Positions 3 through 52,392 of a stretch of 64,000 bases of DNA are shown piece after piece. Source of the DNA: Candidatus Gottesmanbacteria bacterium UBA5942. Lineage in GTDB: Bacteria > Patescibacteriota > Microgenomatia > UBA10105 > UBA927. Made by a program: the position numbers and the translations under genes. Numbering within the stretch: the first letter of the stretch is position 1; each line of letters opens with the position of its first letter. The notes under the pieces were generated by a model. It was not told where the DNA came from, did no database searches, and saw nothing but the letters and a program-made list of their open reading frames with translations. The stretch is from contig DJCU01000008.1 in NCBI GenBank assembly GCA_002430725.1, forward strand, positions 393-64,392, given 5' to 3'.

Positions 3-3000
3 AGATATGCGATAGAGTTTTCTAATCTTCCGTATGTCAGTCTTACGGATGCAAAAAAAGACGTACTTACACTCGAGCAGAAATATCCAGGACAGCCAAT
101 GGTAAGTCGTGAATATGTACTGCGCAATAAAGATACAGCTGGAAAGCGGCCATATAGGGTTGTCACCGTTCCGTTTGATGTGTATGTCAATGACATATAT
201 TTGGCGAATAAAGTATCTGCAGGTATTACCGATCTTGAAATAGATATATTCCAGTTGGGTGTGGGGCGGTTATTCGTTCCAATATCTGAAATATCAGGTA
301 CACAACTAGCGGATTACGCCAGATACCTAGAGTACGCAAGAAATCCGACTGCGTGGAGATTCATGATTGAGCAAATGTGGAAAAAAGATGTGTTTGATAT
401 CCGCAGTAGCACCAGGCAAGTTGTTGAATTTACCCGTTCATTGAACGTAAAAAATGTTGGTCCATTGTTGGGTAGAGCGTGGAAGCAAACTAGCGCTGGT
501 ATTACTGCTGCAAGTAGCCGCATTTCACAGCGATTTAATACATTAGGAATTCGTATCCTTCCATTGCCCCGAGTGCAGGTTGTCGACAGCATCGGAACGA
601 ATGGAAGAACTGTGCAGTCATCAGTACGCTTTGATAAAGGTGCGCAGGACGCTTTGGTGGCTGACTTGCAGAGAACATATCAAACAGAATTTGGATTTAT
701 TGAGTCGGTAGAAAAGGCTCGAATTCAGAGCGCAGAGGTTACTACAGACTCGCTTATAAACAGTGTTATAGTTGAAGCAAGAACGGTGATGGCCTCGGGA
801 ACGAGTAAAGAAATTGAAGAGTTGGCTCTTCATACAGTGATAGCATTTGAGCGGCTGCTATCAGACAAAAAACAAATATCTTCATTTACTGATGCACAAC
901 TGTTGGCTATACGAAAAGCGATATTTAGCAAATCTATTGCAATAGAATTACCGACTGGCACAGGAAAAACATATGCCACCGCATGTGTCGCGCTCATTCG
1001 TGCGCTTATGGGGCAACCGGTGTTGGTTAGTTCAGCTAATGCTGATTTGGCACAGCGAGATTTAGCAGATGTTGGCGAGTTATTTAGACCGTTCCGCATA
1101 TCTTCAGGGTTCGCAGCAAAGGGAAAGTCATTAAATCCATCAATTCGTATTACGTACGGTAAACTTTCTGACATTGTGGCAGCATCGGGACGAGCACTTC
1201 GGACAGGTGTCGACATAGATATTAATGCATATACGTTGTTGCCTGATGAAGGAGATAAAAGTTTGTTGCAGGAAGCGTTAACTCCTATTGTTGAAGTAGA
1301 AGCGGCACAGGGTGAAAGTGCTGGCCTTACATCTGAAGAGGAGCTATTGATTGTAACAATGGCGCGCAACACACAGCAAATGGTTACTGAAGGAGGGTAT
1401 GTAATACCGGACGAACAACAAGAAATACTTTCTTTACTAACACCAGAAGCGAACGAAAAATTAGATACATACAAACCTGATGCAATGTCCGAAGAGAAGT
1501 TTATTGAGTACAAGGAGTTTGCGAGGCGCGCCGCGTTTATGCGAGAAGGAAAAGATTATCTTTATGATCAATATACCGGTGAGATCACATTACTCGATAA
1601 CGAGCAGTTGGCCGATCTCGATAAGAAATTCCAGTCGGGTATCCAGTGGGCGTTGGAGGCAAAACATGGGAGAACGTCAGGGTTTAGCGTTGTTAACGAT
1701 GAAGTGCGGGACAAACACACCACAATGGCATTTGTTCGTCAGGTTGGAAGCGTTATCGTGTTTACGGGAACTGCTTATGAAGAAATTGATGAATTAGAAA
1801 CATATTACGATTTAGAATACGCATCGATTCCACAACCGCTTTGGATATCTATCGCTAGACAACCTCAGGGTACTGATAGGCTGCGTTTAGTTGAGTATTT
1901 TGATCAGGCCAGCGGTATATGGCTTAACGCGATTATAGAAAATCAACAAGGTCAGTGGGTGATTATAGAAAAAGACAGAATTGATTACGAACCTCGATTG
2001 TTCGTTACTGAAGATGCTAAGTTGCATGCCATCCAATCAGACGCAGAGGTTTTGCGAAATTCTGGTCGTGCAGTTCTAGTTGCTTCACAAAATGAAGCGA
2101 GCATGGATAATATTGCATCACTTATTCCTAATGCAATCTCGATTTCTGAGCGTGAACGAGACGAAAAGCGTCAGAATATAGAAATCTCAGGGCACTCCGG
2201 AAATGTAGCAATCGGAAGCGCAAATATTGGAAGAGGTGTTAATTTCCAGCCGGACGAGCAAGTGCAACAAGCTGGCGGTTTTTACGAGATGATCACGGGC
2301 ATCATGAAGCCAAGCACACTTTCTCAGGTGCGCGGTCGTGTAGCGAGGTTGTCTCCGGTGAGGCAAGGCGCATATCAAGCAAGAGCGTGGGGAGCTACGA
2401 GACAATATTTATCTCTCTCGGACATTGCGTCTATATTAGGCTCTACAGATGCGCGAGTGAGAGAACTTGCATATCCTTCTGGTGAAATTACGAAAAACGA
2501 TCCCCGCTATCCAAAGATGGTGAAGCTGATTAGAGAGGCGGAATTAAAGATACAAGAACGTGAAAAGGTTGCGAGAGCTGCACAATTTTATGCAGATCAT
2601 GCTACAGATGAGATTGGTCATGTGCAAAGGCATTTGGCTTTATCAGGATTTGGTGCCGCAAGGCAAACTATTGATTGGTTACTGCGCAGGATAGCTCATG
2701 AAACAAATAGTGCTCTCAAGAAATCATATTTACATAGTGCTGAAGAAGTGTGGAAGCAATATCTAGCAGAGCTAGAAGTGCTAAAGACTACTGCATGGGC
2801 AGGTGCTCAAAGCGAAAAGATTGATCCGGAAATATATTACCAACGAGAATCTTCAACGCTCCTTCGGAATATGATTGCTGTTCTTGCTGATGTTGTTCCT
2901 GCAACAGTTATTGCCCCAACAATACCTATTTTGTCTGATGACGTATGCATGGGTAGTAAAGCAAACTGTGTGGTTGAGGCGGTTATTACTGAGCGGGTAA

Positions 3001-6000
3001 TAGACGCAATCCAGTCGAATAATATGACAGATACAGAAAAAATACAGGCACTGCAGGCATATAAACTTACTGAAAGAGATTTACCGGCACATCAGCTTGC
3101 TATTCATGATGCAACTATAGCGATAGCGTTGGCAGAGTTAGATGTGGCACAGGGTGCAAGCGCAAGAAGTGCGATAAATAGAGCGTTACAATCGCTCAAT
3201 GCGCGTCTTCAAGCACGTCCTGCTCCAGACGATGCAGCTTTGTTAGAGCGAACCAGGGAGGTACTTGAACAAATAAGAGGCGCGATGCCAGAAGGATCAT
3301 CACTTATGGACAGAGTGCGCGATTGGATGCCTGCACCAACAACTATTTTGCAAAGTAACCCAATCCTTGCTCAATTTGCAAAGTACTTTACGTTCGGTTC
3401 AAACATAATCGATACAGACGTAACCACTGTTTCATCGATTCAAGCTGAAGTTACTCTTGTCGCCACAACCCGCGCTGAAGCAGATCGGTATCGGAGCACA
3501 CTCAAGGCTACATACCCACGTTTCCTTCTCGAAACATTACCAACGGGTGACGACAATCAGTTTTTCTTTGTACGGAATGCATCGGGGGAGACAGTTGGAT
3601 TTATCGTTTACCAGACAGCAAATGAAGTGGTTGAGCTTCGTAACCTCATTATCGATCCTCAGTATCAGAACCAGTCGTATGGCACGAATGTGCTTGCTGT
3701 TCTTAAAGAACAATTTAATGAAATTCGATTAACCCCTGTTCCTCATTATGTCGCTGAAGGGGTTGAAGTAGACGATGCGTATGACGCGCTTGTTCGATTT
3801 TATGAACGGGCAGGGTTTATCAAGCAGACGGTGATTGAAAACAGATTTGAGGTAGAAAAATATGTGTGGCGATCTCCATCGGTTCAACGGTTAACAGATA
3901 TGCGTCCGGCTACGGGACGTGAGCGGGTACTGGATGGTGCGCGGGCACTGGAGAGGACATATAGCCCACTCACAAGATCCGCGAAACAAGCCGTACGAAG
4001 TGCTGCAACTTGGATAAATGATCGTATGTGTGGAGGTGCCGCATTTAGATTTATTCGTCCGGTGTTTGCACAGCTAGGTTCTCCGTCTGGAAACACCTCC
4101 TGTCCTGCGGGAAGCGTGGTGAATACGATAGCACCAGTGGCTGAAGCAGCGATGGATGCTCCGGTGGTAACCATGATGAATGCATTAGGTTTTGAAGAAC
4201 CAATTGCACAAATTCCGACTACTCGAGGAGTTGGTTTCTTTACTAGGACCATGCGTTATCAGGGGAGCATTGCTTCAGAGGAAAGTGTGTTCGGGGTCAT
4301 CATGGAAAAGACAATCGATGGTGTGCCCACCGGGAAATGGATATTGAATGTAATGGCAACTGATGAGCTGAGTCTGCCGCCAGTGAATGGCGAAAAAACA
4401 AAAGCGCTTGATGCGTGGTATTTGACTGATGGCTCTGAGTTTCGCGTAGGAACAAATGAGTATAGAGTGCGGGTAATCGATGGCATGTTGTATGTGTATC
4501 ACACCAATCCGCGAAATCCTCAAGGGGCTGAAGGGGATGCGATGGTGGTCGTAGCTGATCTCTATGGTATAAATCCGTTTGTCGAGTTAGCAGATCGCCC
4601 AGTCGCGAGGGACTGGTTCGAAGGGTTTGTAAAAAACAGAGTTATAGATGCTGGATTAGCGCGTATCCTTCCTGTGCCAGTTATTTCTGATGATATTAAG
4701 ATTGGCGAAAATCAAAACACTAATGTCGTTTCTCCAGGGAGACGCGAAGAAATTGTTGCGTCATTACGGAGAACTCGCGATCCGCTTCAAGTATTATCCT
4801 CTTTCTTGTTTATCCGCATGGTGAAAGCTGGATATCACATTTTGATTGCTGATATCGATAGTCTTTATCGGGCAAATCAAACCGGTGTTACCCCATACGG
4901 AGTAACAGGCGACATACTGCTTCATGATATTGCTGAGGCGTTGGGCGAGCTTAATCGTGAGTTTGGAATAGATATAGAGCTTCGGGTTGCAGGAGATACG
5001 TTTGCGTTAGTTTCCAAAGAACCGTTGCCTTCTGATATGGCTGATCGGGTGAAAAACCGTATACAGCAGGTGCGCGGTTTATATGGCGGACGGGGAGACA
5101 TCATTTCGTATGAGCCGGCACGCGTAAAAGTGTTAAGCACTCGCGGAGATGAGTGGATAGGTTTTTCAGAGCGTGATCCAAGCATACCCCATACGGTCAG
5201 AAGAGAGCGATTAGTGCGAATACATCCGGAAGTCGGCATGTTTTTTGACGAACTCGATGCATCATCCGTTTCTCAAGGTCAAAAAGAAGCGTACTTACAA
5301 TTTATTGAAGAAGCGTTGCTCGATCCTGTGCTCTTTACGGGAGCGCAAGACGCGGGGGTAGAGTCGTTTGTCCACCGGAATGACTATTTGGATCATTTAG
5401 TGCCTCACATGATAGACACGTTTGGAAAATCTGAATCGGATGGGAAAAATGCATATCTGGTGCGCATCAGTGTATCTGGTGTTCTTAAGCTCCTCAACGA
5501 TCGGTTTGGTGATGCCGCTGGTAATGTGTTTATCCGACACCTTTTTGATCGAATTATCGCGGTGAATAAACAGTTAGAGGTAGGTGATCTTGCGTGGTAT
5601 GACTTGTATCGGAAAGGCGGGGATTTTGAGTTGACGATAGTAGGAGATGAAGCGCAGGCGCAAGCGCTGATAAACGCGTTGACACAGGCACTCGCGGGGA
5701 CATATACCGAAGGTGGTCACGTGTATAATTTGCAGCCAACAGTCGTTTCTAAAATTATTGATATGCAAACGATAGACGGGCAAACAGTGGTTGATAAAGC
5801 GGAGCTTGAAGCAAGGTTTGGTGCTGTCGAAAGTGATTTGGCGCAGGCGGAATGGTATGAAACCGTCAGAAGGCAAACAAATCTCATGTTTGTCGATGAC
5901 AGCGAGCTTCAAACTGCGCTTTCATACTATGATCCATACGATAAGCGAGGTGCGGTGAGATTGTGGAAGTTGGGTTTGGTAGAAGATGCGGATGTAGAAG

Positions 6001-9000
6001 TGTTCAAACAGATGTACGTTGATCCTGCGAGTCAGAAACGATGGTATTCCGGTCTGTTTGAATGGGTGTATTGGAAATTACCTCCCGGATTTCGTTCGCG
6101 ATTTGCGAGTACGCTAATGCCTGCTCGTGAGCGGATACGTGCTGGTATGCTGCCTCGTGCAAAGGCGTTTCTTACCGATTATCTTGTACGATATGTCGCG
6201 GGATATGATCGCTCTGACAGTGTGTTAATCGCAGACCGTGCAGAGCACACCATGCTTAATTTCCGTTTGGAATTAGAGCGTTTGGTTGCCGAAGGGGAAG
6301 CGTTACAGCGCACGATCACCCCGTCAACGGATGATGTAATAATGCGCGCAATTCAGAGTGAAATTACGGAAATTTCTCGACAAATAGATGCGCATATTCG
6401 GACTATTTTCACTGACTTTACGGATGAACAGCTCCGTCAGTACAAGATTGACCGGAATATCCAACAACGTTTGATGGGCCCCGCAAGCGGAACGCTGGTA
6501 ACACCGCCTACTAACCAACAATTCAATGTTCGGGGCACACTGAGAAATCCTGCCGCCGCCGATGCAAAGCGGGTGCTTGTCGATGAGTTGGGAGTGCTTA
6601 CGGAGGAGCAGTTACGGGAAAGGACGCAAAAGTTGGTTACTGTGTCGCCCCTGACAATCATCAAAGACTCTATGTTTCCGAGCCAGGAAAATAGAAATAC
6701 GTATATGAAGTCATTAGGCGTGACCCGTTTGAGCGCGTTTGGAGAAGTGATATTTCGGCTGGTAAATCTGTATTCAGGACTGTTTGAACGAGGACACTTT
6801 GATGATCGTACCGGCCAACAGTATGTCGTGCCGATGACGGGATTGTCAGCACTCTTTATAGCAGCAGGTGTATATGTATTGCTTCATTTAGCTGCGCCTC
6901 CATTGGCAATAGTTACTGCAATTGCCGGAGTGTTGATGTTTATATTGCCCGCATGGCAGCTTATAACGTTTCCAAATGCTTATTATCATGAGCTCACCCA
7001 TGCGCTGAATATAACGCAGGATAAGCAGTTCGTTTCATATTCAGAATCTCAGGGTTCAGATCTCGCGAACGAAATATTTACCGATTACTTTACTCGAAGG
7101 GTGACGGAACAGTCGCAAACATTTTTTGGGAAAATAGCGCACTTGAGCTATCGAATGTTTGGAAATAACTACGGAGGTAAAATGTCATGGATACCGTTAC
7201 TTTTGGATGAGTTGGACAAAGGGGAAGTGCCTGGCACGGCAGAGCGTATGTTGGCACATTCATATTTTGCGAAACCGGGCGCTGAAAATGATTTTCAAGA
7301 ATTACTCCAAAGAAAATTGGGCAATGAACGCGCAGCGAATGTAATTGCCGCCATAAAGACAGTCTATGATGCTGGCTCAATGTCAAAGGATGATTTGTTA
7401 AAAACGAATGCTATTAAAAATATTTTAGAGACGCGCGTGCAGCAAGGAAATGAGGTAGAAGCGACCGCATATTTACAGGAGCTCGAAGCGCTCGTGGCTC
7501 GGGGAGAAGCCCTTCGCACAAGTATTTTGCCCTCCATGACCTCGGAAGGGAGAGTGCCTATCGAGGAGGAAATAGCAGAAATCAGTCGTCAGATAGATAC
7601 GCTTATACGAGGCGCAAATCCAGCATTTGATGATGTGGCACTTCGTCAGTACAAGATTGACCGGAATATCCAACAGCGCTTGATGGGCCCCGCAAGCGGG
7701 ATGCTTATGGCACCAGCTACTCCGTTGGTAGATCAATATGTGGCAACACCAGTAAATAGCGTTGGAGTGGCAAAAGCGAAAGCGAGCAAAGCCGGCCTCA
7801 TGCATAACGGGGTGCGGCAACTGGCTGATGGATCGACTATGACGATAGGAGGACAGGACGTCATTATCAGAAGCACCCGAACTGCAGTGATTGTGGATGG
7901 AGTGTCCAATAGTATACGGAATGATCAGGGTGAGAATTATTTTGATCAGGAGGTGCAGGATGAAGCAATGGTGCGTGCGCTAGCCGTTTATGGAGCTGTA
8001 CTTCGGGCATTTGATGAACTTGATTTAGATGGTGCTGATCCATCAAATAGGGTTGGCGACATTGTCACACTGATAGAAAGGCATCTTTCAACTATTGTTC
8101 CCGCGTCATCGCCCACAAATAGACCAGCACAAACGACTATCAGCGTGCACCACGCGGTGCAAACACCAACAGGGTGGAAAATAGTGAGCTTCCGTATTGG
8201 CGATCAAAGTGTATTTACTGTTTCACCGGAAGAAATTGGAGAAGTGTCACCGCCAAATAATTTTCATACTGCATTAAACGAGATGAGTGGGGCAGAAGTG
8301 CAGTTAGTTGACGTGCTTGAGGCTTGGAAAGCGTTGCCGCTGGAGATGAAGCGTTTATATCAGACGAGAACGACAAATTTGCCTCAGATGATCGAAGAAG
8401 GATACGCTGGAACTGTAGATATTTCAGCAATTCCTGTTGGTGGATTTGTGATTGTTGGCTCAGATGCGTTGCGGTCGCTTTTTGCTGATCGTCCTTCACT
8501 CGTGGGTGCATTACATAGTGAACTTAAAGGAGTGATAAGTGCACAGGAAGCAGAATCTCGCATCGTGGCATTTCTTGATCGGTATAGTAATTTATATGAC
8601 CAGATAGATGATGACGTGTCGTTTATCGTTTTTGCGCAAACGCCAGAAGGCGTGTTGGATAACGGTGTTTCCATAGCGGCTTCACCGAGAACGCTTGAGA
8701 CCTCTGTAGGCATTACGTCAGAACGCCCAGTGTTAGGAGAAGTGAAAGTAGACGGATTAACACTCGGATACTTTTCAGTAACGGATACACAGGCATATTT
8801 AACTGGCAATACCATCCCAATTTGGGTCAATAATAAGCGATATGATCCACATACGGAAACGCACGCTGGTATGGCATCTATAGAGGTGGGCGATACAGTG
8901 ACCTTTGTTCCCAAGACAACCAAAAATGTCATTTTATATGTTGTCGATGTTGACACACAGGGGCACATGATCCTTCGACACGCCAATCAGCGACCGGGTA

Positions 9001-12000
9001 AAAACGGAGATAATATCGACTTTTCTACTGAATCTCTTCGGGTTGTTCCCGCAGGATCGCGGTATAATTACGAACGGGCATTTGCGGCATGGAATGTGAC
9101 GAGTAACGAAGATAAAACTGCATTTCTTACTGCAGTGGCAACGCTTATCGATACGTTGCCAGAAAAAACAATATTTCCTGATGGAGACGACCAGATTTTC
9201 CGTGTCACAGGGTCGATAAATAGGACATTTGCGCAATTGGAGTTTGATGGGGTAATGAGAGAGATCCTTTCTCAGTTGCGCCCGGGAGAATCGGTAAGCC
9301 TTCGCGTGATACACCCCGATGGTGTTGTCATTGGTGATACCGCTATTGTGAAAGAGTCGGTAGACGTGGAACTTGGCACTATTACGCTTCGTGATGATGG
9401 GATAGCTGAGTTTCAAATGGGTAAAATAAAGCGATTGTCATCGCGGTTCCGAACAGAAAATGTGGCGGTGCCTGAAGCGTTGTCGTATAGCCCTGAACAA
9501 GTATTAGCGGTCATGATAGCGGCATTAGTAAAGCCCAGTTGTTATGTTGATGTAGGCGTACAACACAAAGTATATGCACAGTCGAAAAACCCCGAAACTG
9601 TAGGGAGCGTATGTCTCCTTGCTGCCCGCTCACTCATGAGTGCGGTGCGAAGCGCGGAACGTGGGCAATTTTGGCGTTCTATGCAGCAGTGGTGGCATGA
9701 ACAGCAAGTGATGTGGAATGTACTCCTTGGGAGACAGCGTGAACCGGTTTCGTTTCAAGATACATTAGATGTAGAACCAGCCATTGAATTGGAGGCAACG
9801 AGCGAAGCGCGCGAAGCAGTTATACGACTTTCAGAAATAACCGAGACCACGAGAGATGCTGAATTTATGGACATAATAAATCTTCCCGAGCTCTCGGTGC
9901 GAGATGCATTTCGTAGGCAGTTCGATACCGATATGACTGCATTTTTAGGATATATGTGGTTGTACGGACAACAAGAAGGAATGCTTACTGCCATAGAGAA
10001 ACAGACTGCCACTATCAATTTTCTCACTATGCTTCGTGATAGATATTCAGTCACATTACAGGCAGCACAACCATTCTTTTATCGTGAGTTAACTGAGGGT
10101 CATGAGCAGGATGCAAATCCTGCAGATTTTCTCATTTCCGATGCATTAGTAACGCTTATTGCAAGTAGTCCGACCGCGAGAGATGTGTATGCTGTGTGGC
10201 AAGAAATGGCGAAGGACACAAATCAGGACGTGCGATCACTTCAAGAAAATGAATGGCTCGTGCCGCATCCGTTTGATGACGGAAAAGAAATTCGTGTAAC
10301 ACACGAAGAAACATACGTGGAAGTGACGAATGGCGATGCTGTAGTACGACTTCCTATCGATAATACATATCATCCTTCGATACAAGAAGTTGCAGATAGT
10401 GTTGATGTGCTTGAGCCCGGTATTCGTGTATCGCTGCATACAGATGGTACTGCTGCTCTATTTGTGATGGCATATCAACACAGCATCGTTTGGGATGATG
10501 AGTATGAAATTAGATTTTCTACTGATAGACGGGGAAATTTGTATAAGAAAGGGGCAAAGCAAGCAGGCAAAATTACGGTATGGCCCAGATATACCGAAGA
10601 GTTTGCTGAGATTATCACCCCACCGCTTGCATTTGACGTGGCACATATAAACGGGACATATTTTGTGCAGAAAATGCCTAGCATTCGATTACACGAGGGT
10701 TTCGAGGTGATGAAACCAGATGGATCTCTGTATTCATTACAGGTGGGGGATGAAGTAAGTGAGATGGGTGTTTCGGATACGTATACGATCACCGATGCGC
10801 CCTTTGATTGGAAAGCGATAGGTGATGCTAACAAGTGGGTGTCGATATATGTAAGCCCGTTACGAGAAAGGGGTTTTGAGGGTCGTATTTGGGTAGATGC
10901 GGCAAATCCGGTGATACGTCATGTATCTAGCCCTGTCGATCCGTCCACAGAAAATATGAGTAGTGTGGTGCAGTCGATCCGCATACGTATTCCGGCAATT
11001 GTGGAGAAAAATAAAGCAATATCCCAAGCGCAAGCGACAACCACTACAGATGCGCTGAATAATGTCACACAAGCCATAACCGGAGTGTTTACGAATCCAG
11101 ATTGTTATGCCATGAGGAGTGAATACGTAGCGTACGCTGCCGAGACGACCCGCGATGGTACGTGTCCCACATGGGGAAAGTCGCCACGAAGGGTAGTGCG
11201 CGGCATGAGAAACAGAAGTGAACGGGAGCGGATGGATGCCGATGCTCGCAGTTATGTGCGGATGCTCATATTAGCAGTGCCTCCGATCGGATTTCTTGTA
11301 GACGGGGCGATTAAGGCAGGAATTTGGTATGTAACCGCTCCGCCTCCGCCACCAGTGACTCCACAGTGTACCTTGGGTTCATGTGCGGTGAATGGGCTGT
11401 GTCCCGCGGGTCAACAATGTAGCGCAACCGGTTGTTGTACACAGCTTTCTGCGTACGAAGATTTTGTTTGCTCGGTGGATAAACAGTATCTGTTGAAGCG
11501 CACCATGATAGCACCAGGTGGGTTTTCAATCGATATAAATGCGTCATTTAGATGTCTTGATGGGTGTGTCAATAATGATTGTGCGCAAAAAGCACAGATG
11601 ACGTTCCCTGAGCAGTGTACTGACGCGATGAAAAGGACACCGCTTCTTTATGGATTTGATAGTAATTATGGCGCTATGAATTCATGTCTTGCCATAGATG
11701 ATCTTGCGACCATGTCGTATTATCGTGAGTTTACTTGTAGTACAGATGGCTTGTCGGTCATAGAGCGTGCGACTGGAAATGTCGTGCGGACGTGCTTAGG
11801 CAACCAAACATGCAAACAATCTGGGGATATTGCTGATTGTTTGGGTCCGGTGGGGTACGTGCGACCGCAAAACGCAATTATCGATATGGTCTGTCAGGGA
11901 AATGACGTGTATTTGTTTGACTCTGATACACAGACATTTACCCAACACGTTGCCTCCTGTCCAGTGCGTGGTTGCCAGCAGGGCGCATGTATTGCATATG

Positions 12001-12740
12001 AAGGTGACCGATGCGATAGCTATGCAGTCGCGGGAGCAACAAATATTAATGCACATGTGAGTGTCGATGGCATGCCGATTAGCTGTAATGCAGAGGGAAA
12101 TGTGGTCGTTGCTGATGGGCTTAATAAACGCGTAAATGTCATTACAGGTGTCAATAATATTAAAAATCAGGTATATGACGCGTTAGCATTACTTCCTCCA
12201 GGGTTGATGAAAAAAGATTTTGAGATAGTGGTGTATCCTTCTGGCATTCTTTATGGGGATGACTTAAGTTGGCAATCACTTTGGCAGCGGGTGCTTGGTA
12301 GTGGACGAGACAATATAGGTGGTGTTGATAATCAAACGTTTCCATATCATCGGCGTATATTGCTTACCGAGCAGCAGCCAGAGTTGATGTCGTATGCAGT
12401 GATACATGAGGTAATGCACGCGTATGCGGTTGATCAGCTCACCATACCAGCGTTTGTGCCGCTTGCCGGATTTTATAATATGTTTTCAGTAGGGCAGCAT
12501 AGCAATACTCCAGTCGGATTTCACACAATGATAGGGTGTAAACCAGATGGTTCGTATGATGGTGTACCGTTTAGCGATTATCCCAATCCTGACTGCGCAG
12601 AGGAGTTTGCTGAAGAGGGTGCAGGGTACGTGTTTAAGGCGTGCGAGCTTAAGGCATACAACGAAGATCGGTATAACTACTTCAAAAACGAAGTTTTTGA
12701 TGGTCGAGAGTACCTTCCACCTCAGGGCTGCGTGAATTGA
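3..12740 (+). CDS. Giant multidomain protein, 5'-partial; contains a SecA-family motor ATPase core fused to GNAT, two GGDEF-like domains, a TM/HExxH segment and a Cys-rich C-terminal domain
   Basis: The ORF is uninterrupted from 99 to 12740 (4213 aa). I translated positions 3-98 in the same frame and found no stop, so the ORF is open to the window edge and its N-terminus lies outside the window. A 12.6 kb open frame cannot arise by chance. Domain calls are listed as separate 'other' features. The last 19 nt overlap the convergent gene 12722-13555. Confidence 0.85.
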   Translation, partial: RYAIEFSNLPYVSLTDAKKDVLTLEQKYPGQPMVSREYVLRNKDTAGKRPYRVVTVPFDVYVNDIYLANKVSAGITDLEIDIFQLGVGRLFVPISEISGTQLADYARYLEYARNPTAWRFMIEQMWKKDVFDIRSSTRQVVEFTRSLNVKNVGPLLGRAWKQTSAGITAASSRISQRFNTLGIRILPLPRVQVVDSIGTNGRTVQSSVRFDKGAQDALVADLQRTYQTEFGFIESVEKARIQSAEVTTDSLINSVIVEARTVMASGTSKEIEELALHTVIAFERLLSDKKQISSFTDAQLLAIRKAIFSKSIAIELPTGTGKTYATACVALIRALMGQPVLVSSANADLAQRDLADVGELFRPFRISSGFAAKGKSLNPSIRITYGKLSDIVAASGRALRTGVDIDINAYTLLPDEGDKSLLQEALTPIVEVEAAQGESAGLTSEEELLIVTMARNTQQMVTEGGYVIPDEQQEILSLLTPEANEKLDTYKPDAMSEEKFIEYKEFARRAAFMREGKDYLYDQYTGEITLLDNEQLADLDKKFQSGIQWALEAKHGRTSGFSVVNDEVRDKHTTMAFVRQVGSVIVFTGTAYEEIDELETYYDLEYASIPQPLWISIARQPQGTDRLRLVEYFDQASGIWLNAIIENQQGQWVIIEKDRIDYEPRLFVTEDAKLHAIQSDAEVLRNSGRAVLVASQNEASMDNIASLIPNAISISERERDEKRQNIEISGHSGNVAIGSANIGRGVNFQPDEQVQQAGGFYEMITGIMKPSTLSQVRGRVARLSPVRQGAYQARAWGATRQYLSLSDIASILGSTDARVRELAYPSGEITKNDPRYPKMVKLIREAELKIQEREKVARAAQFYADHATDEIGHVQRHLALSGFGAARQTIDWLLRRIAHETNSALKKSYLHSAEEVWKQYLAELEVLKTTAWAGAQSEKIDPEIYYQRESSTLLRNMIAVLADVVPATVIAPTIPILSDDVCMGSKANCVVEAVITERVIDAIQSNNMTDTEKIQALQAYKLTERDLPAHQLAIHDATIAIALAELDVAQGASARSAINRALQSLNARLQARPAPDDAALLERTREVLEQIRGAMPEGSSLMDRVRDWMPAPTTILQSNPILAQFAKYFTFGSNIIDTDVTTVSSIQAEVTLVATTRAEADRYRSTLKATYPRFLLETLPTGDDNQFFFVRNASGETVGFIVYQTANEVVELRNLIIDPQYQNQSYGTNVLAVLKEQFNEIRLTPVPHYVAEGVEVDDAYDALVRFYERAGFIKQTVIENRFEVEKYVWRSPSVQRLTDMRPATGRERVLDGARALERTYSPLTRSAKQAVRSAATWINDRMCGGAAFRFIRPVFAQLGSPSGNTSCPAGSVVNTIAPVAEAAMDAPVVTMMNALGFEEPIAQIPTTRGVGFFTRTMRYQGSIASEESVFGVIMEKTIDGVPTGKWILNVMATDELSLPPVNGEKTKALDAWYLTDGSEFRVGTNEYRVRVIDGMLYVYHTNPRNPQGAEGDAMVVVADLYGINPFVELADRPVARDWFEGFVKNRVIDAGLARILPVPVISDDIKIGENQNTNVVSPGRREEIVASLRRTRDPLQVLSSFLFIRMVKAGYHILIADIDSLYRANQTGVTPYGVTGDILLHDIAEALGELNREFGIDIELRVAGDTFALVSKEPLPSDMADRVKNRIQQVRGLYGGRGDIISYEPARVKVLSTRGDEWIGFSERDPSIPHTVRRERLVRIHPEVGMFFDELDASSVSQGQKEAYLQFIEEALLDPVLFTGAQDAGVESFVHRNDYLDHLVPHMIDTFGKSESDGKNAYLVRISVSGVLKLLNDRFGDAAGNVFIRHLFDRIIAVNKQLEVGDLAWYDLYRKGGDFELTIVGDEAQAQALINALTQALAGTYTEGGHVYNLQPTVVSKIIDMQTIDGQTVVDKAELEARFGAVESDLAQAEWYETVRRQTNLMFVDDSELQTALSYYDPYDKRGAVRLWKLGLVEDADVEVFKQMYVDPASQKRWYSGLFEWVYWKLPPGFRSRFASTLMPARERIRAGMLPRAKAFLTDYLVRYVAGYDRSDSVLIADRAEHTMLNFRLELERLVAEGEALQRTITPSTDDVIMRAIQSEITEISRQIDAHIRTIFTDFTDEQLRQYKIDRNIQQRLMGPASGTLVTPPTNQQFNVRGTLRNPAAADAKRVLVDELGVLTEEQLRERTQKLVTVSPLTIIKDSMFPSQENRNTYMKSLGVTRLSAFGEVIFRLVNLYSGLFERGHFDDRTGQQYVVPMTGLSALFIAAGVYVLLHLAAPPLAIVTAIAGVLMFILPAWQLITFPNAYYHELTHALNITQDKQFVSYSESQGSDLANEIFTDYFTRRVTEQSQTFFGKIAHLSYRMFGNNYGGKMSWIPLLLDELDKGEVPGTAERMLAHSYFAKPGAENDFQELLQRKLGNERAANVIAAIKTVYDAGSMSKDDLLKTNAIKNILETRVQQGNEVEATAYLQELEALVARGEALRTSILPSMTSEGRVPIEEEIAEISRQIDTLIRGANPAFDDVALRQYKIDRNIQQRLMGPASGMLMAPATPLVDQYVATPVNSVGVAKAKASKAGLMHNGVRQLADGSTMTIGGQDVIIRSTRTAVIVDGVSNSIRNDQGENYFDQEVQDEAMVRALAVYGAVLRAFDELDLDGADPSNRVGDIVTLIERHLSTIVPASSPTNRPAQTTISVHHAVQTPTGWKIVSFRIGDQSVFTVSPEEIGEVSPPNNFHTALNEMSGAEVQLVDVLEAWKALPLEMKRLYQTRTTNLPQMIEEGYAGTVDISAIPVGGFVIVGSDALRSLFADRPSLVGALHSELKGVISAQEAESRIVAFLDRYSNLYDQIDDDVSFIVFAQTPEGVLDNGVSIAASPRTLETSVGITSERPVLGEVKVDGLTLGYFSVTDTQAYLTGNTIPIWVNNKRYDPHTETHAGMASIEVGDTVTFVPKTTKNVILYVVDVDTQGHMILRHANQRPGKNGDNIDFSTESLRVVPAGSRYNYERAFAAWNVTSNEDKTAFLTAVATLIDTLPEKTIFPDGDDQIFRVTGSINRTFAQLEFDGVMREILSQLRPGESVSLRVIHPDGVVIGDTAIVKESVDVELGTITLRDDGIAEFQMGKIKRLSSRFRTENVAVPEALSYSPEQVLAVMIAALVKPSCYVDVGVQHKVYAQSKNPETVGSVCLLAARSLMSAVRSAERGQFWRSMQQWWHEQQVMWNVLLGRQREPVSFQDTLDVEPAIELEATSEAREAVIRLSEITETTRDAEFMDIINLPELSVRDAFRRQFDTDMTAFLGYMWLYGQQEGMLTAIEKQTATINFLTMLRDRYSVTLQAAQPFFYRELTEGHEQDANPADFLISDALVTLIASSPTARDVYAVWQEMAKDTNQDVRSLQENEWLVPHPFDDGKEIRVTHEETYVEVTNGDAVVRLPIDNTYHPSIQEVADSVDVLEPGIRVSLHTDGTAALFVMAYQHSIVWDDEYEIRFSTDRRGNLYKKGAKQAGKITVWPRYTEEFAEIITPPLAFDVAHINGTYFVQKMPSIRLHEGFEVMKPDGSLYSLQVGDEVSEMGVSDTYTITDAPFDWKAIGDANKWVSIYVSPLRERGFEGRIWVDAANPVIRHVSSPVDPSTENMSSVVQSIRIRIPAIVEKNKAISQAQATTTTDALNNVTQAITGVFTNPDCYAMRSEYVAYAAETTRDGTCPTWGKSPRRVVRGMRNRSERERMDADARSYVRMLILAVPPIGFLVDGAIKAGIWYVTAPPPPPVTPQCTLGSCAVNGLCPAGQQCSATGCCTQLSAYEDFVCSVDKQYLLKRTMIAPGGFSIDINASFRCLDGCVNNDCAQKAQMTFPEQCTDAMKRTPLLYGFDSNYGAMNSCLAIDDLATMSYYREFTCSTDGLSVIERATGNVVRTCLGNQTCKQSGDIADCLGPVGYVRPQNAIIDMVCQGNDVYLFDSDTQTFTQHVASCPVRGCQQGACIAYEGDRCDSYAVAGATNINAHVSVDGMPISCNAEGNVVVADGLNKRVNVITGVNNIKNQVYDALALLPPGLMKKDFEIVVYPSGILYGDDLSWQSLWQRVLGSGRDNIGGVDNQTFPYHRRILLTEQQPELMSYAVIHEVMHAYAVDQLTIPAFVPLAGFYNMFSVGQHSNTPVGFHTMIGCKPDGSYDGVPFSDYPNPDCAEEFAEEGAGYVFKACELKAYNEDRYNYFKNEVFDGREYLPPQGCVN
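800..2450 (+). other. SecA-family (DEAD motor, NBD1-PPXD-NBD2) ATPase core inside the giant ORF
   Basis: I matched motifs against E. coli and B. subtilis SecA from memory. FTDAQLLAI..IAIELPTGTGKT at nt 951-971 matches HFDVQLLGG..IAEMRTGEGKT (Walker A). GTGKTYATACVALIRALMGQPVLVSSANADLAQRD matches [35 protein letters not shown]. ITYGK matches ITYGTN. DEGDKSLLQEALTPIVEV at nt 1245 onward matches DEVDSILIDEARTPLIIS (Walker B). WALEAKHG matches QAVEAKEG. FTGTA at nt 1761-1775 matches GMTGTA. IGRGVNF at nt 2229 onward matches AGRGTDI. QVRGRVARL matches QLRGRSGRQ. Motif order and spacings (Walker A to DE about 98 aa, DE to TGTA about 172 aa) fit SecA. Confidence 0.7.
3540..3840 (+). other. GNAT-fold acetyltransferase-like domain inside the giant ORF
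   Basis: The segment VGFIVYQTANEVVELRNLIIDPQYQNQSYGTNVLAVL...YDALVRFYERAGFIKQ has a motif A-like Q-x-x-G-x-G/N and the typical C-terminal F-Y-E-R/K-x-G-F. Confidence 0.5.
4800..5080 (+). other. GGDEF-like nucleotidyl-cyclase palm domain 1 (degenerate: DID retained, GGDEF replaced by AGDTF)
   Basis: HILIADIDSLYRANQTGVTPYGVTGDILLHDIAEAL...IDIELRVAGDTFALVS aligns to the GGDEF consensus llDiDhFKxiNDtyGHxxGDxvL...RyGGDEFavl. Confidence 0.5.
5440..5720 (+). other. GGDEF-like palm domain 2 (degenerate: DxD replaced by SVS, signature reads GGDFE)
   Basis: LVRISVSGVLKLLNDRFGDAAGNVFIRHLFDRI...DLYRKGGDFELTIVGDEAQAQAL aligns to the same consensus. NDxxGxxxGN and RxGGD are retained, but the metal-binding DxD is lost. 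Confidence 0.5.
6435..6490 (+). repeat. Intragenic direct repeat copy A (56 nt)
   Basis: cgtcagtacaagattgaccggaatatccaacaacgtttgatgggccccgcaagcgg encodes RQYKIDRNIQQRLMGPASG. Copy A and copy B are 54/56 nt identical and the repeat unit is in frame (offset 1209 nt). The flanking roughly 80 aa are also similar at the protein level (..ISRQID..IR..F.D..LRQYKIDRNIQQRLMGPASG). Confidence 0.9.
6850..7010 (+). other. Predicted TM hairpin followed by HExxH motif (YYHELTHAL) in the giant ORF
   Basis: Two hydrophobic stretches, LSALFIAAGVYVLLHLAAPPLAIVTAIAGVLMFILPAW, are followed immediately by HELTH at nt 6985-6999. This resembles membrane-associated zincin signatures (M48 HELGH) and the DUF4157-type HELTHVvQ motif. 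Confidence 0.4.
7644..7699 (+). repeat. Intragenic direct repeat copy B (56 nt)
   Basis: cgtcagtacaagattgaccggaatatccaacagcgcttgatgggccccgcaagcgg has 2 mismatches to copy A. Confidence 0.9.
11340..12737 (+). other. Poly-Pro linker plus Cys-rich C-terminal domain carrying a second HExxH (IHEVMHAY at nt 12405-12419)
   Basis: A hydrophobic stretch (MLILAVPPIGFLV) is followed by APPPPPVTPQC and about 430 aa with roughly 40 Cys (for example CTLGSCAVNGLCPAGQQCSATGCC). HEVMH sits in a zincin-like context. The Cys richness suggests an extracytoplasmic, disulfide-bonded domain. Confidence 0.5.
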
Positions 12741-40265: not shown

Positions 40266-41063
40266 TTAATAAAATATATCTTCACCATTGGGGATCGTTG
40301 TTTTGTGCAGTTCTTTAACCGGTATACGGTTTCCTCCGATGTATAAAATTTTTAGATTTGGCGGAAGTACACGAGGAAATTCGCGTAGACGGTTGCCCGT
40401 AAGATCAAGTTCGGTGAGATTAGTGAGATATTGCATGCTGGCAGGTAATTCTTCAAGTTTGTTGTATGCCAAGCTAAGCGTCGTCAGATTGGTCAGGTTG
40501 CCGATTGATTCTGGTAGTCGGGAAATGCGGTTGCCTTCGAGATTAAGTATTTCGAGCGTTGAAATATCACCGATTTGCGTAGGAACTTCGGTAACCCGGG
40601 TATTTCTGATGGTTATTTGTTTAACATTTGTAAAAAGATTTATATTTGTAGGAAGTGATTCAAGTGGCGTATCTTCAATCAGAAGTAAGGTTACCCATGG
40701 CATGGGTTTTTGTAATGGTAATGTGCGTAATAGGTCGGTGCCGTCGAATATAAGTTCTTCTGTGGACGTTTTGGTGAGGTCGGGGTGATTATCTAATATA
40801 CGGAGAAAAAATGTTTGCGGTGAATATACTGCTTGCTGGTGAATTATCCGCTCCGGAAGTATATGTGCAAGATAAAAAAGTTGGGTAAACACCGCCAGCC
40901 ACATGTATACACTGATAGTCGCGATAACACATCCCACCAGTGACCACAATGCTATTTGGCGTATGTTAATGAGGCGATGAGTTTTGGGTTTTGCCGTGGG
41001 GACTATTGCTGCCGTGGAAGGCGCAAATGCGGTGGGTGATGGGGGGACAGGTTGCTCTTGCAT
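40266..41063 (-). CDS. Membrane-anchored leucine-rich-repeat protein
   Basis: The N-terminal TM helix WSLVGCVIATISVYMWLAVF is followed by LRR units: ISTLEILNLEGNRISRLPESIGNLTNLTTLSLAYNKLEELPASMQYLTNLTELDLTGNRLREFP. Confidence 0.7.
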   Translation of the reverse strand: MQEQPVPPSPTAFAPSTAAIVPTAKPKTHRLINIRQIALWSLVGCVIATISVYMWLAVFTQLFYLAHILPERIIHQQAVYSPQTFFLRILDNHPDLTKTSTEELIFDGTDLLRTLPLQKPMPWVTLLLIEDTPLESLPTNINLFTNVKQITIRNTRVTEVPTQIGDISTLEILNLEGNRISRLPESIGNLTNLTTLSLAYNKLEELPASMQYLTNLTELDLTGNRLREFPRVLPPNLKILYIGGNRIPVKELHKTTIPNGEDIFY

Positions 41064-45208: not shown

Positions 45209-46106
45209 AGAATTTGACCACATGATACCAAAGTTTACCGATGCGTGAAACGGTAGGAAAGATGATGAGAAGTAGCCCATAATAGAACTGCTGGAGTATA
45301 GGAAATCTCTGTGCCGAGCAAATCTCCTTGATAAACCATACAGGGAAAAATGTTGGGTATGGGGATGCCCGTAAATCTACTTTATACTCATCTATGGTAC
45401 ATGCATCAGAATACCCATTCCAGAACGCTGCAGTCCATAGTGGGCCAAACGAAACTCTTGGGGTTGCATGCGCGATAATGGTAGGGTCAAAATAAATTGT
45501 TTTTCCTGCTTGTACGAGACGAAGGCCGAGCTCTACATCGTCATTTCGGTATCTACGGTGTCGTTCGGGAAATCCAAAGGAAAGAAGGGTAGATCGTCTG
45601 ATACCCATGACTTCACAATCGAGTATTCTACCCCAGAGAAGGGGAACGGCTCGTTTTAGTCCGGGAAAAAAATGATTTAATCCTCGCTGGTAGTAGGCAA
45701 ATTGAGTTGCCGCGTATATATTGTCTTCGTGTGAGTTTGTTATGCGCCCAATAACCGCAGTAAGAGTAGGGTCTCTTTGGAAATGTTTTTGAAACTTTGC
45801 TAGGTACTTGCGGTCTGCAACGCAGTCATCATCCAAGTAAACGACAATATCTCCATGTGCTGTTTTTGCCCCAAGTGTACGTCCATAAGGAATAGAGTGT
45901 TTCGTATTTCTTTTGATGATATGGAGTGTGTTGGTGTGTGACTTGATGACCGCAACCGTTTGTTTGTGAAGTTGGGTTGATCCGTCTACTATGACGACTT
46001 CAATAGGTTGTGTTTTCTGTTTGTGAATTGAGGTAAGTGCCTTTTCTAATAGGTGTGGGCGATCGCTGGTAAGGATAATAACACTGATAGTTGGCGGTTT
46101 ATTCAT
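45186..46106 (-). CDS. GT2 glycosyltransferase
   Basis: ISVIILTSDRPHLLEKALTSIHKQ and VYLDDDCV match the family. Confidence 0.7.
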   Translation of the reverse strand: MNKPPTISVIILTSDRPHLLEKALTSIHKQKTQPIEVVIVDGSTQLHKQTVAVIKSHTNTLHIIKRNTKHSIPYGRTLGAKTAHGDIVVYLDDDCVADRKYLAKFQKHFQRDPTLTAVIGRITNSHEDNIYAATQFAYYQRGLNHFFPGLKRAVPLLWGRILDCEVMGIRRSTLLSFGFPERHRRYRNDDVELGLRLVQAGKTIYFDPTIIAHATPRVSFGPLWTAAFWNGYSDACTIDEYKVDLRASPYPTFFPVWFIKEICSAQRFPILQQFYYGLLLIIFPTVSRIGKLWYHVVKFYEYRHHK

Positions 46107-47116
46107 GGCTCTCGAGCTGATAACAGGGGTTTACCGGTGGTAATAAGCGACACAATATCTGCTCCAACTTTGAGTTTATTTTTTTTGATAGCGTCTTTTG
46201 CGGTGCACACTATCCAACAGTCATTACAGGCATGCGCTGCCGGGAGAAATTGTTGTTTAGGTTTTGAATACCATATTTGTTCAAATGATTGTTTTCGTAA
46301 GTTGCCAATTGGCCAATTTTTAATTTGACACATAAATATATTGGCAAATGGATCCATGTAGAAGAAATTTTCTCCTGCACCACAAGGGAGTGGGCGGCGA
46401 TGGTGTAGCATATATTCATACGAATACCGATTAAACCATGCCTTGCCCCAATTTTTGGGATTGATACTTTTCATCTGTTCAGAAAATAAATAATCAAACT
46501 CTTTTTTGACACTGCGGGGTTTTGGCTGCAACGATACTTTTCCTTTGCCAAAATAGATAGGCGAATCGTGAACGACATTGAGTGAAAAGGCGAGGTTTTC
46601 TTTTTTACAGTGGGCATAGACAGCTTTAAGTTCGTGTTGGTTGATACCCATGAGAGTAAACGTAAGGCCAATATCTTTTACCCCTGCTTCCTTGAGGATT
46701 GCCACTGATTGCATAACTTTTTCAAACGCTTGCGGTATGCCTCGAACTTTTTCATGGGTAGCCCCCCAACCATCGAGAGAAAGTCGAAATGCGATGGCAG
46801 GATCGTTTTTTACGATAGCCGGCGCATATTTTTTGATTTTTGAAGGTAAGAAGCCATTAGTGGTAATAAGTATTCTCGCTTTGGGACAACGTTTTCGGAT
46901 TATTCCGACAATTTCAGGAATATCGTTTCGTAAAAATGGTTCGCCACCGGTGATATCGACCATTTCGAGTGATGTGGGCAATTTTTTATATATTGTCACT
47001 GGCAAAAAATCGAGTCCACGATTTTTCCAGATGTCACAGTGGATACAACGAGAATTACAAAGGAGGGTGACGGAAATAAATGCGCTTTTGGGTAATGGAG
47101 ATTTCGTGTTAACCAT
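46103..47116 (-). CDS. Radical SAM enzyme with a C-terminal Cys-rich (SPASM/twitch-like) auxiliary cluster region
   Basis: The N-terminal CNSRCIHCDIW is a CxxxCxxC motif. GGEPFLRND resembles the SAM-binding GGEP motif. The C-terminal CGAGENFFYMDPFANIFMC ... CNDCWIVC resembles C-x-G-x14-C ... C-x2-C-x4-C. Confidence 0.7.
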   Translation of the reverse strand: MVNTKSPLPKSAFISVTLLCNSRCIHCDIWKNRGLDFLPVTIYKKLPTSLEMVDITGGEPFLRNDIPEIVGIIRKRCPKARILITTNGFLPSKIKKYAPAIVKNDPAIAFRLSLDGWGATHEKVRGIPQAFEKVMQSVAILKEAGVKDIGLTFTLMGINQHELKAVYAHCKKENLAFSLNVVHDSPIYFGKGKVSLQPKPRSVKKEFDYLFSEQMKSINPKNWGKAWFNRYSYEYMLHHRRPLPCGAGENFFYMDPFANIFMCQIKNWPIGNLRKQSFEQIWYSKPKQQFLPAAHACNDCWIVCTAKDAIKKNKLKVGADIVSLITTGKPLLSAREP

Positions 47117-47206: not shown

Positions 47207-47689
47207 CTATCCGCTCTGACGAGCTAATATGTCGAGATAGCGAATGAGTGCCGGATTTTTCTTTTGTATCGGGTCGATGCTGCTTGTGGCTGTCATAATT
47301 TTTATAAGCGGTGTTTTGGGGGTGACGATGCGGATAAGGTGGTGATTTGCCATAAATGTCGCAAAATCAACCTGATGGTCATTAAGGTGTTCTCCGTAGT
47401 GCTTTTGTCGTGGGAGCACCCAGGGAATTTTTCCAAATGAAAGCGCTTGGTATATTGTTGCTGGTCCACCATGGCAAATAATCACTCGTGCGAGCTTCAT
47501 GTATTGCATAAGTTTTCGATGCGGTATGAACGCGTGGGGTTCTATTTCAGGATCGAGAAAGTGTGGTGGTGTATGTCCGTATTGAAATATGATTTTTTCA
47601 TTTGTCGGGCGAATATGAATAAGATGCTCGACCAAAGTCGTCATCCGTTGGAATGGAAATAGTGTGGAGCCAACTGTTATTAGTATCAT
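47207..47689 (-). CDS. Alg13-like (Glyco_tran_28_C) catalytic subunit of a split glycosyltransferase (PssE/EpsF/Cps14G-like)
   Basis: MILITVGSTLFPFQRM...ARVIICHGGPATIYQALSFGKIPWVLPR...HLNDHQVDFA matches the Alg13 consensus vfVTvGtt.Fd...l.vQ.G...AdlvIsHaGaGsile.l..gKp.ivvpr...NHQ.ela. Confidence 0.6.
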   Translation of the reverse strand: MILITVGSTLFPFQRMTTLVEHLIHIRPTNEKIIFQYGHTPPHFLDPEIEPHAFIPHRKLMQYMKLARVIICHGGPATIYQALSFGKIPWVLPRQKHYGEHLNDHQVDFATFMANHHLIRIVTPKTPLIKIMTATSSIDPIQKKNPALIRYLDILARQSG

Positions 47690-48141
47690 AATATCGCTCC
47701 TTTGTACTTCGCGCGCGGATAGAATTTTTTTTGGGTAGGATGCTGCACAAGTATATGATCGACAAATGGTGATACAAGGCGACCAGTAAGGCTTGAAGTT
47801 TTTACGAGGTCAAACACTTCGATAAATACGGTTTTTATGCCAAGGAGTTTACCGATAATAAAAAATGGAGGCGCTATACCGGCGCCGCAGCTAATAAGGA
47901 GCGTTGGGCGTTCGGCTCTCAGGATTTGCCATGCAAGCCTGATGTGACGGATAGCATTATAGATATGCCTCGTTTCCGGGTAATAACCATAATAAACCCG
48001 TTCTTTTTTGAGCAGTGAGGCAACATCTTCACCGGAAAACGTTACCCAAAAATGGTCATACTTACTCCACCAGGGCTTTAGCCGATACATCTGGTATACG
48101 TGACCGCCTTTTGACGTAATAATACCAATGACTGGCTTCAT
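47686..48141 (-). CDS. Alg14-like membrane-associated partner subunit (PssD/EpsE/Cps14F-like)
   Basis: IGIITSKGGHVYQMYRL.., LLISCGAGIAPPFFIIGKLLGIKTVFIEVFDLVKTSSLTGRLV...YPRAKYKG matches the Alg14 consensus (SGGHt.em; NGpG.cvp...iyvES.aRv..lSltGkl; yp.a.y.G). It overlaps its Alg13-like partner by 4 nt. Confidence 0.6.
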   Translation of the reverse strand: MKPVIGIITSKGGHVYQMYRLKPWWSKYDHFWVTFSGEDVASLLKKERVYYGYYPETRHIYNAIRHIRLAWQILRAERPTLLISCGAGIAPPFFIIGKLLGIKTVFIEVFDLVKTSSLTGRLVSPFVDHILVQHPTQKKFYPRAKYKGAIL

Positions 48142-51100: not shown

Positions 51101-51108
51101 TATTTGTG

Positions 51109-51831: not shown

Positions 51832-51859
51832 CATGATAATTGGTTATACTATAAAAGAT

Positions 51860-52381: not shown

Positions 52382-52392
52382 ATATATCAAAC

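Follow-up and report, generated by a model that had tools for sequence, protein, structure and literature searches.

A conserved tandem GGDEF module in a giant SecA_DEAD protein of a Candidatus Gottesmanbacteria bacterium

Introduction

GGDEF domains are the catalytic domains of the diguanylate cyclases. Each domain binds one GTP, and catalysis requires two loaded domains face to face. Control of these cyclases is thought to occur mainly through regulated homodimerisation. Some GGDEF domains serve other purposes: PelD, FimX, LapD and PopA are cyclic di-GMP (c-di-GMP) receptors or adaptors, and the GGDEF domain of PdeA from C. crescentus senses GTP. Here we describe two GGDEF-like domains that lie in tandem in a giant gene of Candidatus Gottesmanbacteria bacterium UBA5942. 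The stretch of DNA analysed, called the window below, is 64,000 nucleotides long (assembly GCA_002430725.1, contig DJCU01000008.1, positions 393 to 64,392 of the forward strand).

GGDEF domains have been found among the domains of giant SecA_DEAD proteins with many transmembrane segments, in the "Archaeovorins" of the Omnitrophota and in Actinobacteriota (West-Roberts et al., bioRxiv 10.1101/2023.11.21.568195). That work also noted PilZ genes downstream of the giants; GGDEF appears there as a Pfam annotation, and neither a tandem pair nor a family of stand-alone proteins is described. Our literature search on tandem GGDEF domains returned GGDEF-EAL papers only, and searching the literature by accession led to no publication. 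The tandem module reported here, with its GGDF hallmark and helical scaffold, thus appears to be undescribed in the libraries and literature searched.

Results

Two GGDEF-fold domains in tandem

We found that both segments are genuine GGDEF-fold domains, with a similarity far above chance. An original prediction, made from the sequence alone, had proposed two tandem GGDEF-like palm domains on the basis of four motifs, and all four are present in the translation of the plus-strand open reading frame (ORF). Domain 1 (nt 4788-5165, aa 1564-1689) contains DID in strand 1 (nt 4851-4859, aa 1585) and AGDTF in the hairpin where GGDEF is expected (nt 4989-5003, aa 1631). Domain 2 (nt 5364-5780, aa 1756-1894) contains SVS in strand 1 (nt 5469-5477, aa 1791) and GGDFE in the hairpin (nt 5616-5630, aa 1840). 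Amino acid numbers are relative to the window, counted from the first ATG inside it (nt 99), and all features of the giant gene are on the plus strand.

Profile searches identified both domains. The Pfam model PF00990 matched the two together with 30.3 bits (E 4.3e-7). Domain 1 alone scored 24.0 bits (gathering score 23.8) and domain 2 alone 12.5 bits (E 0.12), which is sub-threshold as a single sequence. The same model matched 14/15 of the aligned family sequences scanned (best E 8.4e-12). When a family profile of domain 1 (alignment A4) was compared with the PDB, there were 31 matches at E<=1e-3, all of them GGDEF proteins (best 5.8e-10). The corresponding profile of domain 2 (A3) matched mostly GGDEF proteins (best 1.1e-5). 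The two domain profiles also matched each other in hhalign (probability 92%, E 5e-7).

The predicted fold agreed with the profiles. We modelled the whole module (491 residues) and domain 2 alone with AlphaFold2. The module model, built from 15 aligned sequences, had a mean predicted local distance difference test score (pLDDT) of 81.8 and a predicted template modelling score (pTM) of 0.80. It consisted of two beta-alpha-alpha-beta-beta-alpha-beta units with helices between and around them, and the order of secondary structure elements fits the GGDEF palm fold in both domains. In a Foldseek search of the PDB with this model, the top 50 matches were all GGDEF domains (4urg_B, E 1.7e-6, TM-score on the target 0.72). 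Domain 2 modelled alone had a pLDDT of 87.7, and its top 50 matches were likewise all GGDEF domains (TM-score on the query <=0.71, root-mean-square deviation ~3 Angstrom). A search of BFVD returned phage diguanylate cyclases, then weak polymerase palms and nothing else.

Two observations would allow that the resemblance is due to chance or low complexity, or that the pair belongs to another palm family (Cas10/mCpol, Thg1 or class III cyclase). One is that domain 2 scored low when it was compared with Pfam as a single sequence. The other is that a single-sequence phmmer search of the PDB found no cyclase and only one irrelevant weak match. However, the family profiles and the Foldseek results refute this explanation, to which we assign virtually no probability. 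Low-complexity similarity had been named at the outset as the way the assignment might fail, and both the profile and the structure searches were significant. Cas10, Thg1 and class III (adenylyl) cyclases had been suggested as alternative relatives, and none of their structures was in the Foldseek PDB top 50 of either model. No Pfam family for Cas10, mCpol, CD-NTase, Thg1 or class III palms matched the pair at E<=10. PADLOC gave no Cas10, mCpol, CD-NTase or other defence match for two stand-alone relatives (see below) or for the module region of the giant protein; the sole PADLOC match of the giant protein was weak and DinG-like (aa 274-325).

A rare and conserved module

The pair is a single compact, conserved module of ~490 residues, and it is rare. 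An exhaustive phmmer search with aa 1480-1920 against 1.84 billion cluster representatives gave 19 matches (6e-38 to 8e-4). Most of these matched in one co-linear stretch of ~290-410 residues over both domains. We define the tandem-GGDEF module family in this analysis as sequences P0001 to P0018 plus the locus L006. Most relatives (in the range P0003-P0018) are stand-alone proteins of ~500 aa. The remainder are giant or fragmentary: P0001 (5,270 aa), P0002 (5,985 aa), P0015 (7,844 aa) and the L006 ORF (at least 2,092 aa).

The whole module spans nt 4581-6053 (aa 1495-1985), as defined by the co-linear relatives, the alignment and the AlphaFold2 model. It comprises N-terminal helices, domain 1, a linker, domain 2 and C-terminal helices. 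Conservation extends beyond the GGDEF cores. There is an N-terminal segment, "F..R.FD.G....LP ... PVLSS". The linker (nt 5166-5363), which is helical in the model, carries the family motifs R..RL...HPE and LLE..L.DP.L, in which D1742 is invariant. The C-terminal helical part (nt 5781-6053) contains a motif, NPxDKRG..RL.KLG in the family and YDPYDKRG..RLWKLG in the window, that is matched co-linearly by most relatives and has an invariant Arg (R1950). We conclude that the module is one unit rather than two independent domains, because the matches are co-linear, the linker and C-terminal residues are invariant (D248 and R456 when aa 1495 is counted as 1), and the pTM is 0.80. For a model with several domains, such a pTM is consistent with the two predicted domains being fixed relative to each other.

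Other searches gave little beyond this family. The 10 cluster entries looked up (10/10) were singletons or nearly so, and none had a dedicated family name. Apart from GGDEF, no Pfam family was shared by any two of the 15 scanned sequences, and NCBIfam had nothing within the module region of the window protein. Word-indexed homologue searches, with the window segment, the 15-sequence alignment or P0005 as query, returned nothing useful; it was the exhaustive phmmer search that found the family. The window module found no relative among genome contigs. The P0001 segment found one more copy in a giant protein, L006 (CAYSOR010000008.1), which is 40% identical to P0001. A metagenome scan with alignment A5 gave two candidates, L010 and L011, which we rejected as members; both are ordinary MASE-GGDEF-EAL proteins.

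Active-site residues in the family

We compared the active-site residues of 18 sequences, the window copy and 17 relatives. As reference we used positions of PleD that we take to be D327 (strand-1 metal-binding Asp), K332, N335 and D344 (guanine-reading residues), R366, and K442 and R446 (phosphate binders in helix 4). In domain 1, the strand-1 Asp, the Arg and the Asp at the third position of GGDEF were present in 18/18 sequences, the Asp equivalent to D344 and the Glu at the fourth position in 17/18, and the Asn in 16/18. An aromatic residue took the place of Lys332. In domain 2, the Lys and the Arg were present in 18/18, the Asn and the Asp of the Asn-Asp pair in 17/18 each, and an acid (D/E) in strand 1 in 16/18. 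The position equivalent to D344 was variable in domain 2 (N/D/S/G). Nine residues were invariant in the family (D91, R135, G138, D139, D248, K303, D307, R344 and R456, with aa 1495 as 1), and the window copy has 9/9.

The hairpin of domain 2 is characteristic of the family. GGD was mostly kept and was followed directly by Phe, giving the consensus RRGGDF[Y/F], one residue shorter than GGDEF, and HMMER aligned this hairpin to GGDEF with a one-residue gap. The GGDFE of the window copy had originally been read as GGDEF with E and F swapped; the alignments point instead to GGD-F with one residue deleted. A second part of that prediction, the complementary degeneracy of the two domains, is not supported as a principle of design. 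The GGDF of domain 2 is the family norm (17 relatives), and in DID, strand 1 of domain 1, only the first Asp is family-invariant; the second (D1587) was seen solely in the window copy and P0002.

Most stand-alone proteins appear intact in domain 1. All kept at least a GDE core, with GGDEF in 9/14. The other five (5/14) had AGDEF (P0006, P0013), GGDEI (P0010), GGDEL (P0016) or EGDEF after an insertion (P0018). Degeneration recurred among the copies in giant proteins, with "ELSDEH" in domain 1 of P0015 and "RGSSF" in domain 2 of L006.

The window copy has retained most of these residues. Domain 1 keeps D1585 (equivalent to D327), N1593 and D1605 (the two guanine-reading residues), R1629 and D1633. 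Domain 2 keeps K1797, N1800, D1801, R1838 and GGD1842, and has N1809 where PleD has D344. Two acids are missing. In domain 1, T1634 stands at the fourth position of GGDEF, where Glu is found in 17/17 relatives; the window is the sole exception. In domain 2, S1791 stands at the strand-1 position, where the family has [D/E]-x-P and an acid is present in 16/17 relatives (Gly in P0016). An intact GG[D/E]EF hairpin is present in neither domain (AGDTF in one; GGDF(E), with the deletion, in the other). The module DNA was 100% identical across six independent assemblies, indicating that the deviant residues are real and not sequencing errors.

A probable pseudoenzyme

What might the covalent pair do? 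Since GGDEF enzymes need two facing nucleotide-loaded domains, the pair is probably a single-chain pseudo-dimer, in which the two sites would face each other. Across the family, domain 1 would provide a complete half-site, with the strand-1 Asp, base-reading Asn and Asp, Arg and GGDEF. Domain 2 would provide a conserved partner half-site with Lys, Asn-Asp, Arg, GGD and a strand-1 acid, the second Glu being deleted. No domain for sensing, input or dimerisation was recognised among the stand-alone members in the Pfam scan, and this fits a self-contained pair.

The window copy is probably a catalytically dead or strongly attenuated, nucleotide-binding pseudoenzyme (probability roughly 55%), as judged from its residues. 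In each domain one metal-ligand acid is gone (E to T in AGDTF, D/E to S in SVS), and the fold, the nucleotide-contacting residues and every family-invariant position remain; this combination suggests the reading. Such a copy would still bind guanine nucleotide and would serve as a regulatory or structural element. The expectation that neither domain is a canonical diguanylate cyclase is borne out, in that neither combines GG[D/E]EF with the strand-1 acid set.

A possible but rather unlikely alternative is that the window copy retains activity, as a non-canonical nucleotidyl cyclase or synthase that might make c-di-GMP, a mixed dinucleotide or linear pppGpG. D1585, D1587 and D1633 would then be enough to bind the metal in domain 1, with domain 2 supplying the second nucleotide. 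Consistent with activity, N1593, D1605, R1629, the third-position Asp and all family-invariant residues are present, and D1587, from DID, could make up for the missing Glu. The variable residue at the D344-equivalent position of domain 2 would also be in keeping with GGDEF domains of altered specificity, for which the Hypr GGDEFs are the comparison case. However, domain 1 has Thr in place of a Glu that is considered indispensable to metal coordination in the cyclases that have been characterised, domain 2 has also lost its acid in strand 1, and there are no PilZ, EAL or HD-GYP genes within the 64-kb window.

We also considered a c-di-GMP receptor of the degenerate-GGDEF type, binding through an I-site as in PelD and PopA. 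Degenerate GGDEF domains often turn into receptors. GGDEF domains and neighbouring PilZ genes on other SecA_DEAD giants (bioRxiv 10.1101/2023.11.21.568195) would suit such a role. The original prediction had called for a check of the RxxD I-site, and the motif was found five residues upstream of neither hairpin (FGID in domain 1, LAWY in domain 2). The family alignment shows no conservation at this position either, and there is no PilZ or other c-di-GMP gene nearby. Based on these results we consider a receptor of this type very improbable.

Several points weigh against a nucleotide-binding pseudoenzyme derived from a catalytic pair. Equivalents of PleD K442 and R446 were not evident in either domain, even with the relatives that have an intact GGDEF; the HMMER alignments end short of helix 4. 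This lack of detectable conservation makes it less credible that the family as a whole is catalytic. D1585, the extra D1587 and D1633 remain and might still bind metal, so that residual or altered activity might persist. The family alignments are shallow (15-18 sequences). Finally, the cytoplasmic placement of the module (see below) derives from the neighbouring domains, and ~9,970 residues of the protein lie upstream of the window.

The giant host gene

The module is part of a giant gene, of which the window contains the C-terminal ~4,245 codons (nt 3-12740, left window edge open). There is no stop codon in frame at nt 3-98, and nt 99 is merely the first ATG inside the window. That open frame, together with calls of 14,187 aa in matching records, indicates that the window holds only the last ~4,245 codons. 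An identical PIG-L gene, with the same 19-nt overlap with the giant gene, lies downstream in six public records (L015-L020). The adjoining giant gene is annotated in 5/6 of them, with 13,838 to 14,193 residues (14,187 in three), and is not called in the sixth, L017. The full gene is ~42.6 kb, or ~3.6% of a sequence of ~1.17 Mb (two of the records are single contigs, up to 1,172,763 bp). Assemblies of the organism occur in over 50 blocks of the public collection.

The original prediction had placed the two domains in a fusion with a secretion ATPase, and they are indeed downstream of a divergent SecA-like motor ATPase (nt 717-2378, aa ~207-760; Pfam SecA_DEAD, 6.7e-10). NCBIfam SecA and SecA2 models matched the giant protein at 6e-21 (SecA) to 1e-10, yet far under their equivalog cut-offs. 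The Pfam matches to P-loop_SecA and SecA_SW were weak and sub-threshold (SecA_SW, 16.7 bits). A GNAT acetyltransferase domain follows (nt 3534-3827, aa 1146-1243; Acetyltransf_1 and Acetyltransf_7, ~2e-7, above threshold). Downstream of the module are a predicted transmembrane hairpin (aa 2243-2282; hydropathy peaks 1.98 and 2.25) and then a zincin-like motif, HELTH (aa 2297), together at nt 6825-7001. The last predicted transmembrane segment (aa 3720-3740) precedes a Cys-rich tail with HEVMH (aa 4103), together at nt 11256-12419. The tail, with 27 Cys within aa 3601-4200, is presumed to be extracellular. Both motifs are of the zincin-like HExxH type from a motif scan, and Pfam recognised neither them nor the Cys-rich tail. 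Taken together, the very large ORF, divergent SecA_DEAD domain, weak wing and scaffold matches and transmembrane hydropathy peaks fit the SecA_DEAD type of giant protein.

The module would be cytoplasmic, in an enzyme-rich region that has the SecA-like ATPase and the GNAT domain before it and the first clear membrane hairpin after it. We place it there because domains that depend on GTP, ATP and acetyl-CoA occur with no strong transmembrane segment between them. Between the SecA-like and GNAT domains there is also a Pro-rich, moderately hydrophobic segment (aa 921-944, nt ~2859-2930, hydropathy 1.9), which would change the proposed topology of the module if it is a true transmembrane helix.

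The region around the transmembrane hairpin also contains a duplication. An 81-nt direct repeat, 86% identical, is present at window positions 6432-6512 and 7641-7721. It is the core of a duplicated coiled-coil-like segment of ~80 aa ("...EISRQID...RQYKIDRNIQQRLMGPASG"), and the two copies of the segment bracket the predicted hairpin and HELTH.

Genomic neighbourhood

The giant-gene locus is evolving rapidly, through shuffling of domains. Downstream of the giant gene, the window and the P0001 and P0015 loci all have YfhO-like and NPCBM genes. Rho and LysM-M23 genes lie upstream of it in the P0001 and P0015 loci, a region that is beyond the window here. The giants at those two loci (L002 10001-25813 and L003 10001-33535, genomes GCA_040960095.1 and GCA_040960765.1) are 5,270 and 7,844 aa long, respectively. 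Among the syntenic giant genes, the length, domain order and position of the module differ greatly. The domains around the module differ as well (FHA and transglutaminase in P0001, LytR and GDSL lipase in L006). A module found at differing positions among differing domains behaves as a shuffled cassette.

These findings bear on a further explanation, that the pair is purely a structural scaffold or spacer that binds no ligand, a decaying remnant of an inserted module. The surrounding domains differ in every giant relative (P0001, L006), and decay of the catalytic motifs has taken place separately in P0015 and L006, as would be expected of such a remnant. In contrast, the window copy retains all nine invariant and nearly all near-invariant residues, including positions that contact the nucleotide, which argues for constraint beyond maintenance of the fold. 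We therefore think that an inert spacer is improbable.

The stand-alone genes have a different context. They adjoin transketolase or transaldolase genes in three divergent lineages (L001 2566-4965; L005 450-4833; L007 5155-9542). In L005 and L007, an HD-GYP-like gene (HD...HH....DG..IP...DGYDAL) lies two genes downstream of the stand-alone gene.

The rest of the window encodes glycosyltransferases, aminotransferases and Wzy-like proteins, among others, with YfhO/PMT_2 in the gene content. YfhO/PMT_2, the pilins and the many glycosyltransferases, along with the ~1.17-Mb contigs, would fit a reduced genome of the CPR type. No tRNA or Rfam family was matched in the window. The glycosyltransferase-rich cluster includes a leucine-rich-repeat protein (40266-41063, minus strand), a radical SAM/SPASM enzyme (46103-47116, minus strand) and split Alg13/Alg14-like genes (47207-48141). 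Three consecutive genes with an N-terminal methylation motif (type IV pilin or pseudopilin) are at 51106-52935. They adjoin genes for a 2,189-aa protein with five Laminin_G_3 domains (54612-61181, minus strand) and a 798-aa unknown protein.

Discussion

A more far-reaching proposal concerns the family as a whole. The tandem module might be a class of self-contained, single-chain synthases of a dinucleotide (or linear pppNpN) that need no input domain for dimerising. Such a class might be inherited vertically beside pentose-phosphate genes in small-genome, probably episymbiotic bacteria, and might have been captured repeatedly by SecA_DEAD giants. Captured copies, active or degenerate, might then couple guanine-nucleotide status to the ATPase or secretion machinery of the giant. 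We regard this combined proposal as tentative and unlikely to hold in full.

A conserved, covalent GGDEF-GGDEF pair with its own scaffold would be a solution different from regulated homodimerisation, a built-in pseudo-dimer. The series of copies, from apparently intact in the stand-alone proteins to degenerate in the giants, is a natural one for studying the change from enzyme to pseudoenzyme. The module also adds a defined, testable unit to the almost unannotated interior of the SecA_DEAD giants. Its practical importance is modest: GGDEF domains are a family known in great detail, their presence on such giants has already been reported, and the function proposed here is read from sequence.

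The canonical GGDEF cyclases (PleD, WspR, DgcZ, DosC and T. maritima TM1788; PF00990) have the same fold as the window domains. They were the sole and best structural matches (4urg, 4zve, 3icl and 9g85; TM-scores of 0.6-0.7 on the domain), and they share with the module the order of motifs: strand-1 Asp, "K..ND", "GD..L" and the "R.GGDEF" hairpin. Unlike them, the module has two domains per chain and a dedicated helical scaffold. It has no input or dimerisation domain, no RxxD I-site and no detectable conservation of the helix-4 Lys and Arg, and its second domain has the one-residue deletion (GGDF). The window copy differs further in AGDTF and in the absence of a strand-1 acid from domain 2.

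Degenerate GGDEF pseudoenzymes keep the fold and have lost catalytic acids, as has the window copy, and their likely role is in ligand sensing or scaffolding. The GGDEF domains of FimX (3hva) and LapD (6pwk) were among the Foldseek matches. PelD, FimX, LapD, PopA and PdeA each have one degenerate GGDEF domain, combined with EAL, Rec or GAF and often with an I-site, whereas the module has two GGDEF domains, no EAL and no I-site. By analogy, the C1-C2 pair of mammalian adenylyl cyclase and the palms of Cas10 may be compared with the module, as they likewise have two homologous domains per chain, one complete and one degenerate, that work as a single unit. They are other palm families, absent from the structural matches. 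Each domain of a GGDEF enzyme binds a nucleotide of its own, in contrast to the shared composite site of the C1-C2 and Cas10 palms.

The SecA_DEAD giants (West-Roberts et al.) are the closest described counterparts of the host protein. PilZ genes follow those giants and none follows the giant gene here, and the host belongs to a different lineage, with a genome of ~1.17 Mb. Like them, the protein described here is a multi-domain membrane protein of more than 10,000 aa whose divergent SecA_DEAD domain has no good match to the wing or scaffold, and it has an acetyltransferase, peptidase-like parts and GGDEF in common with them.

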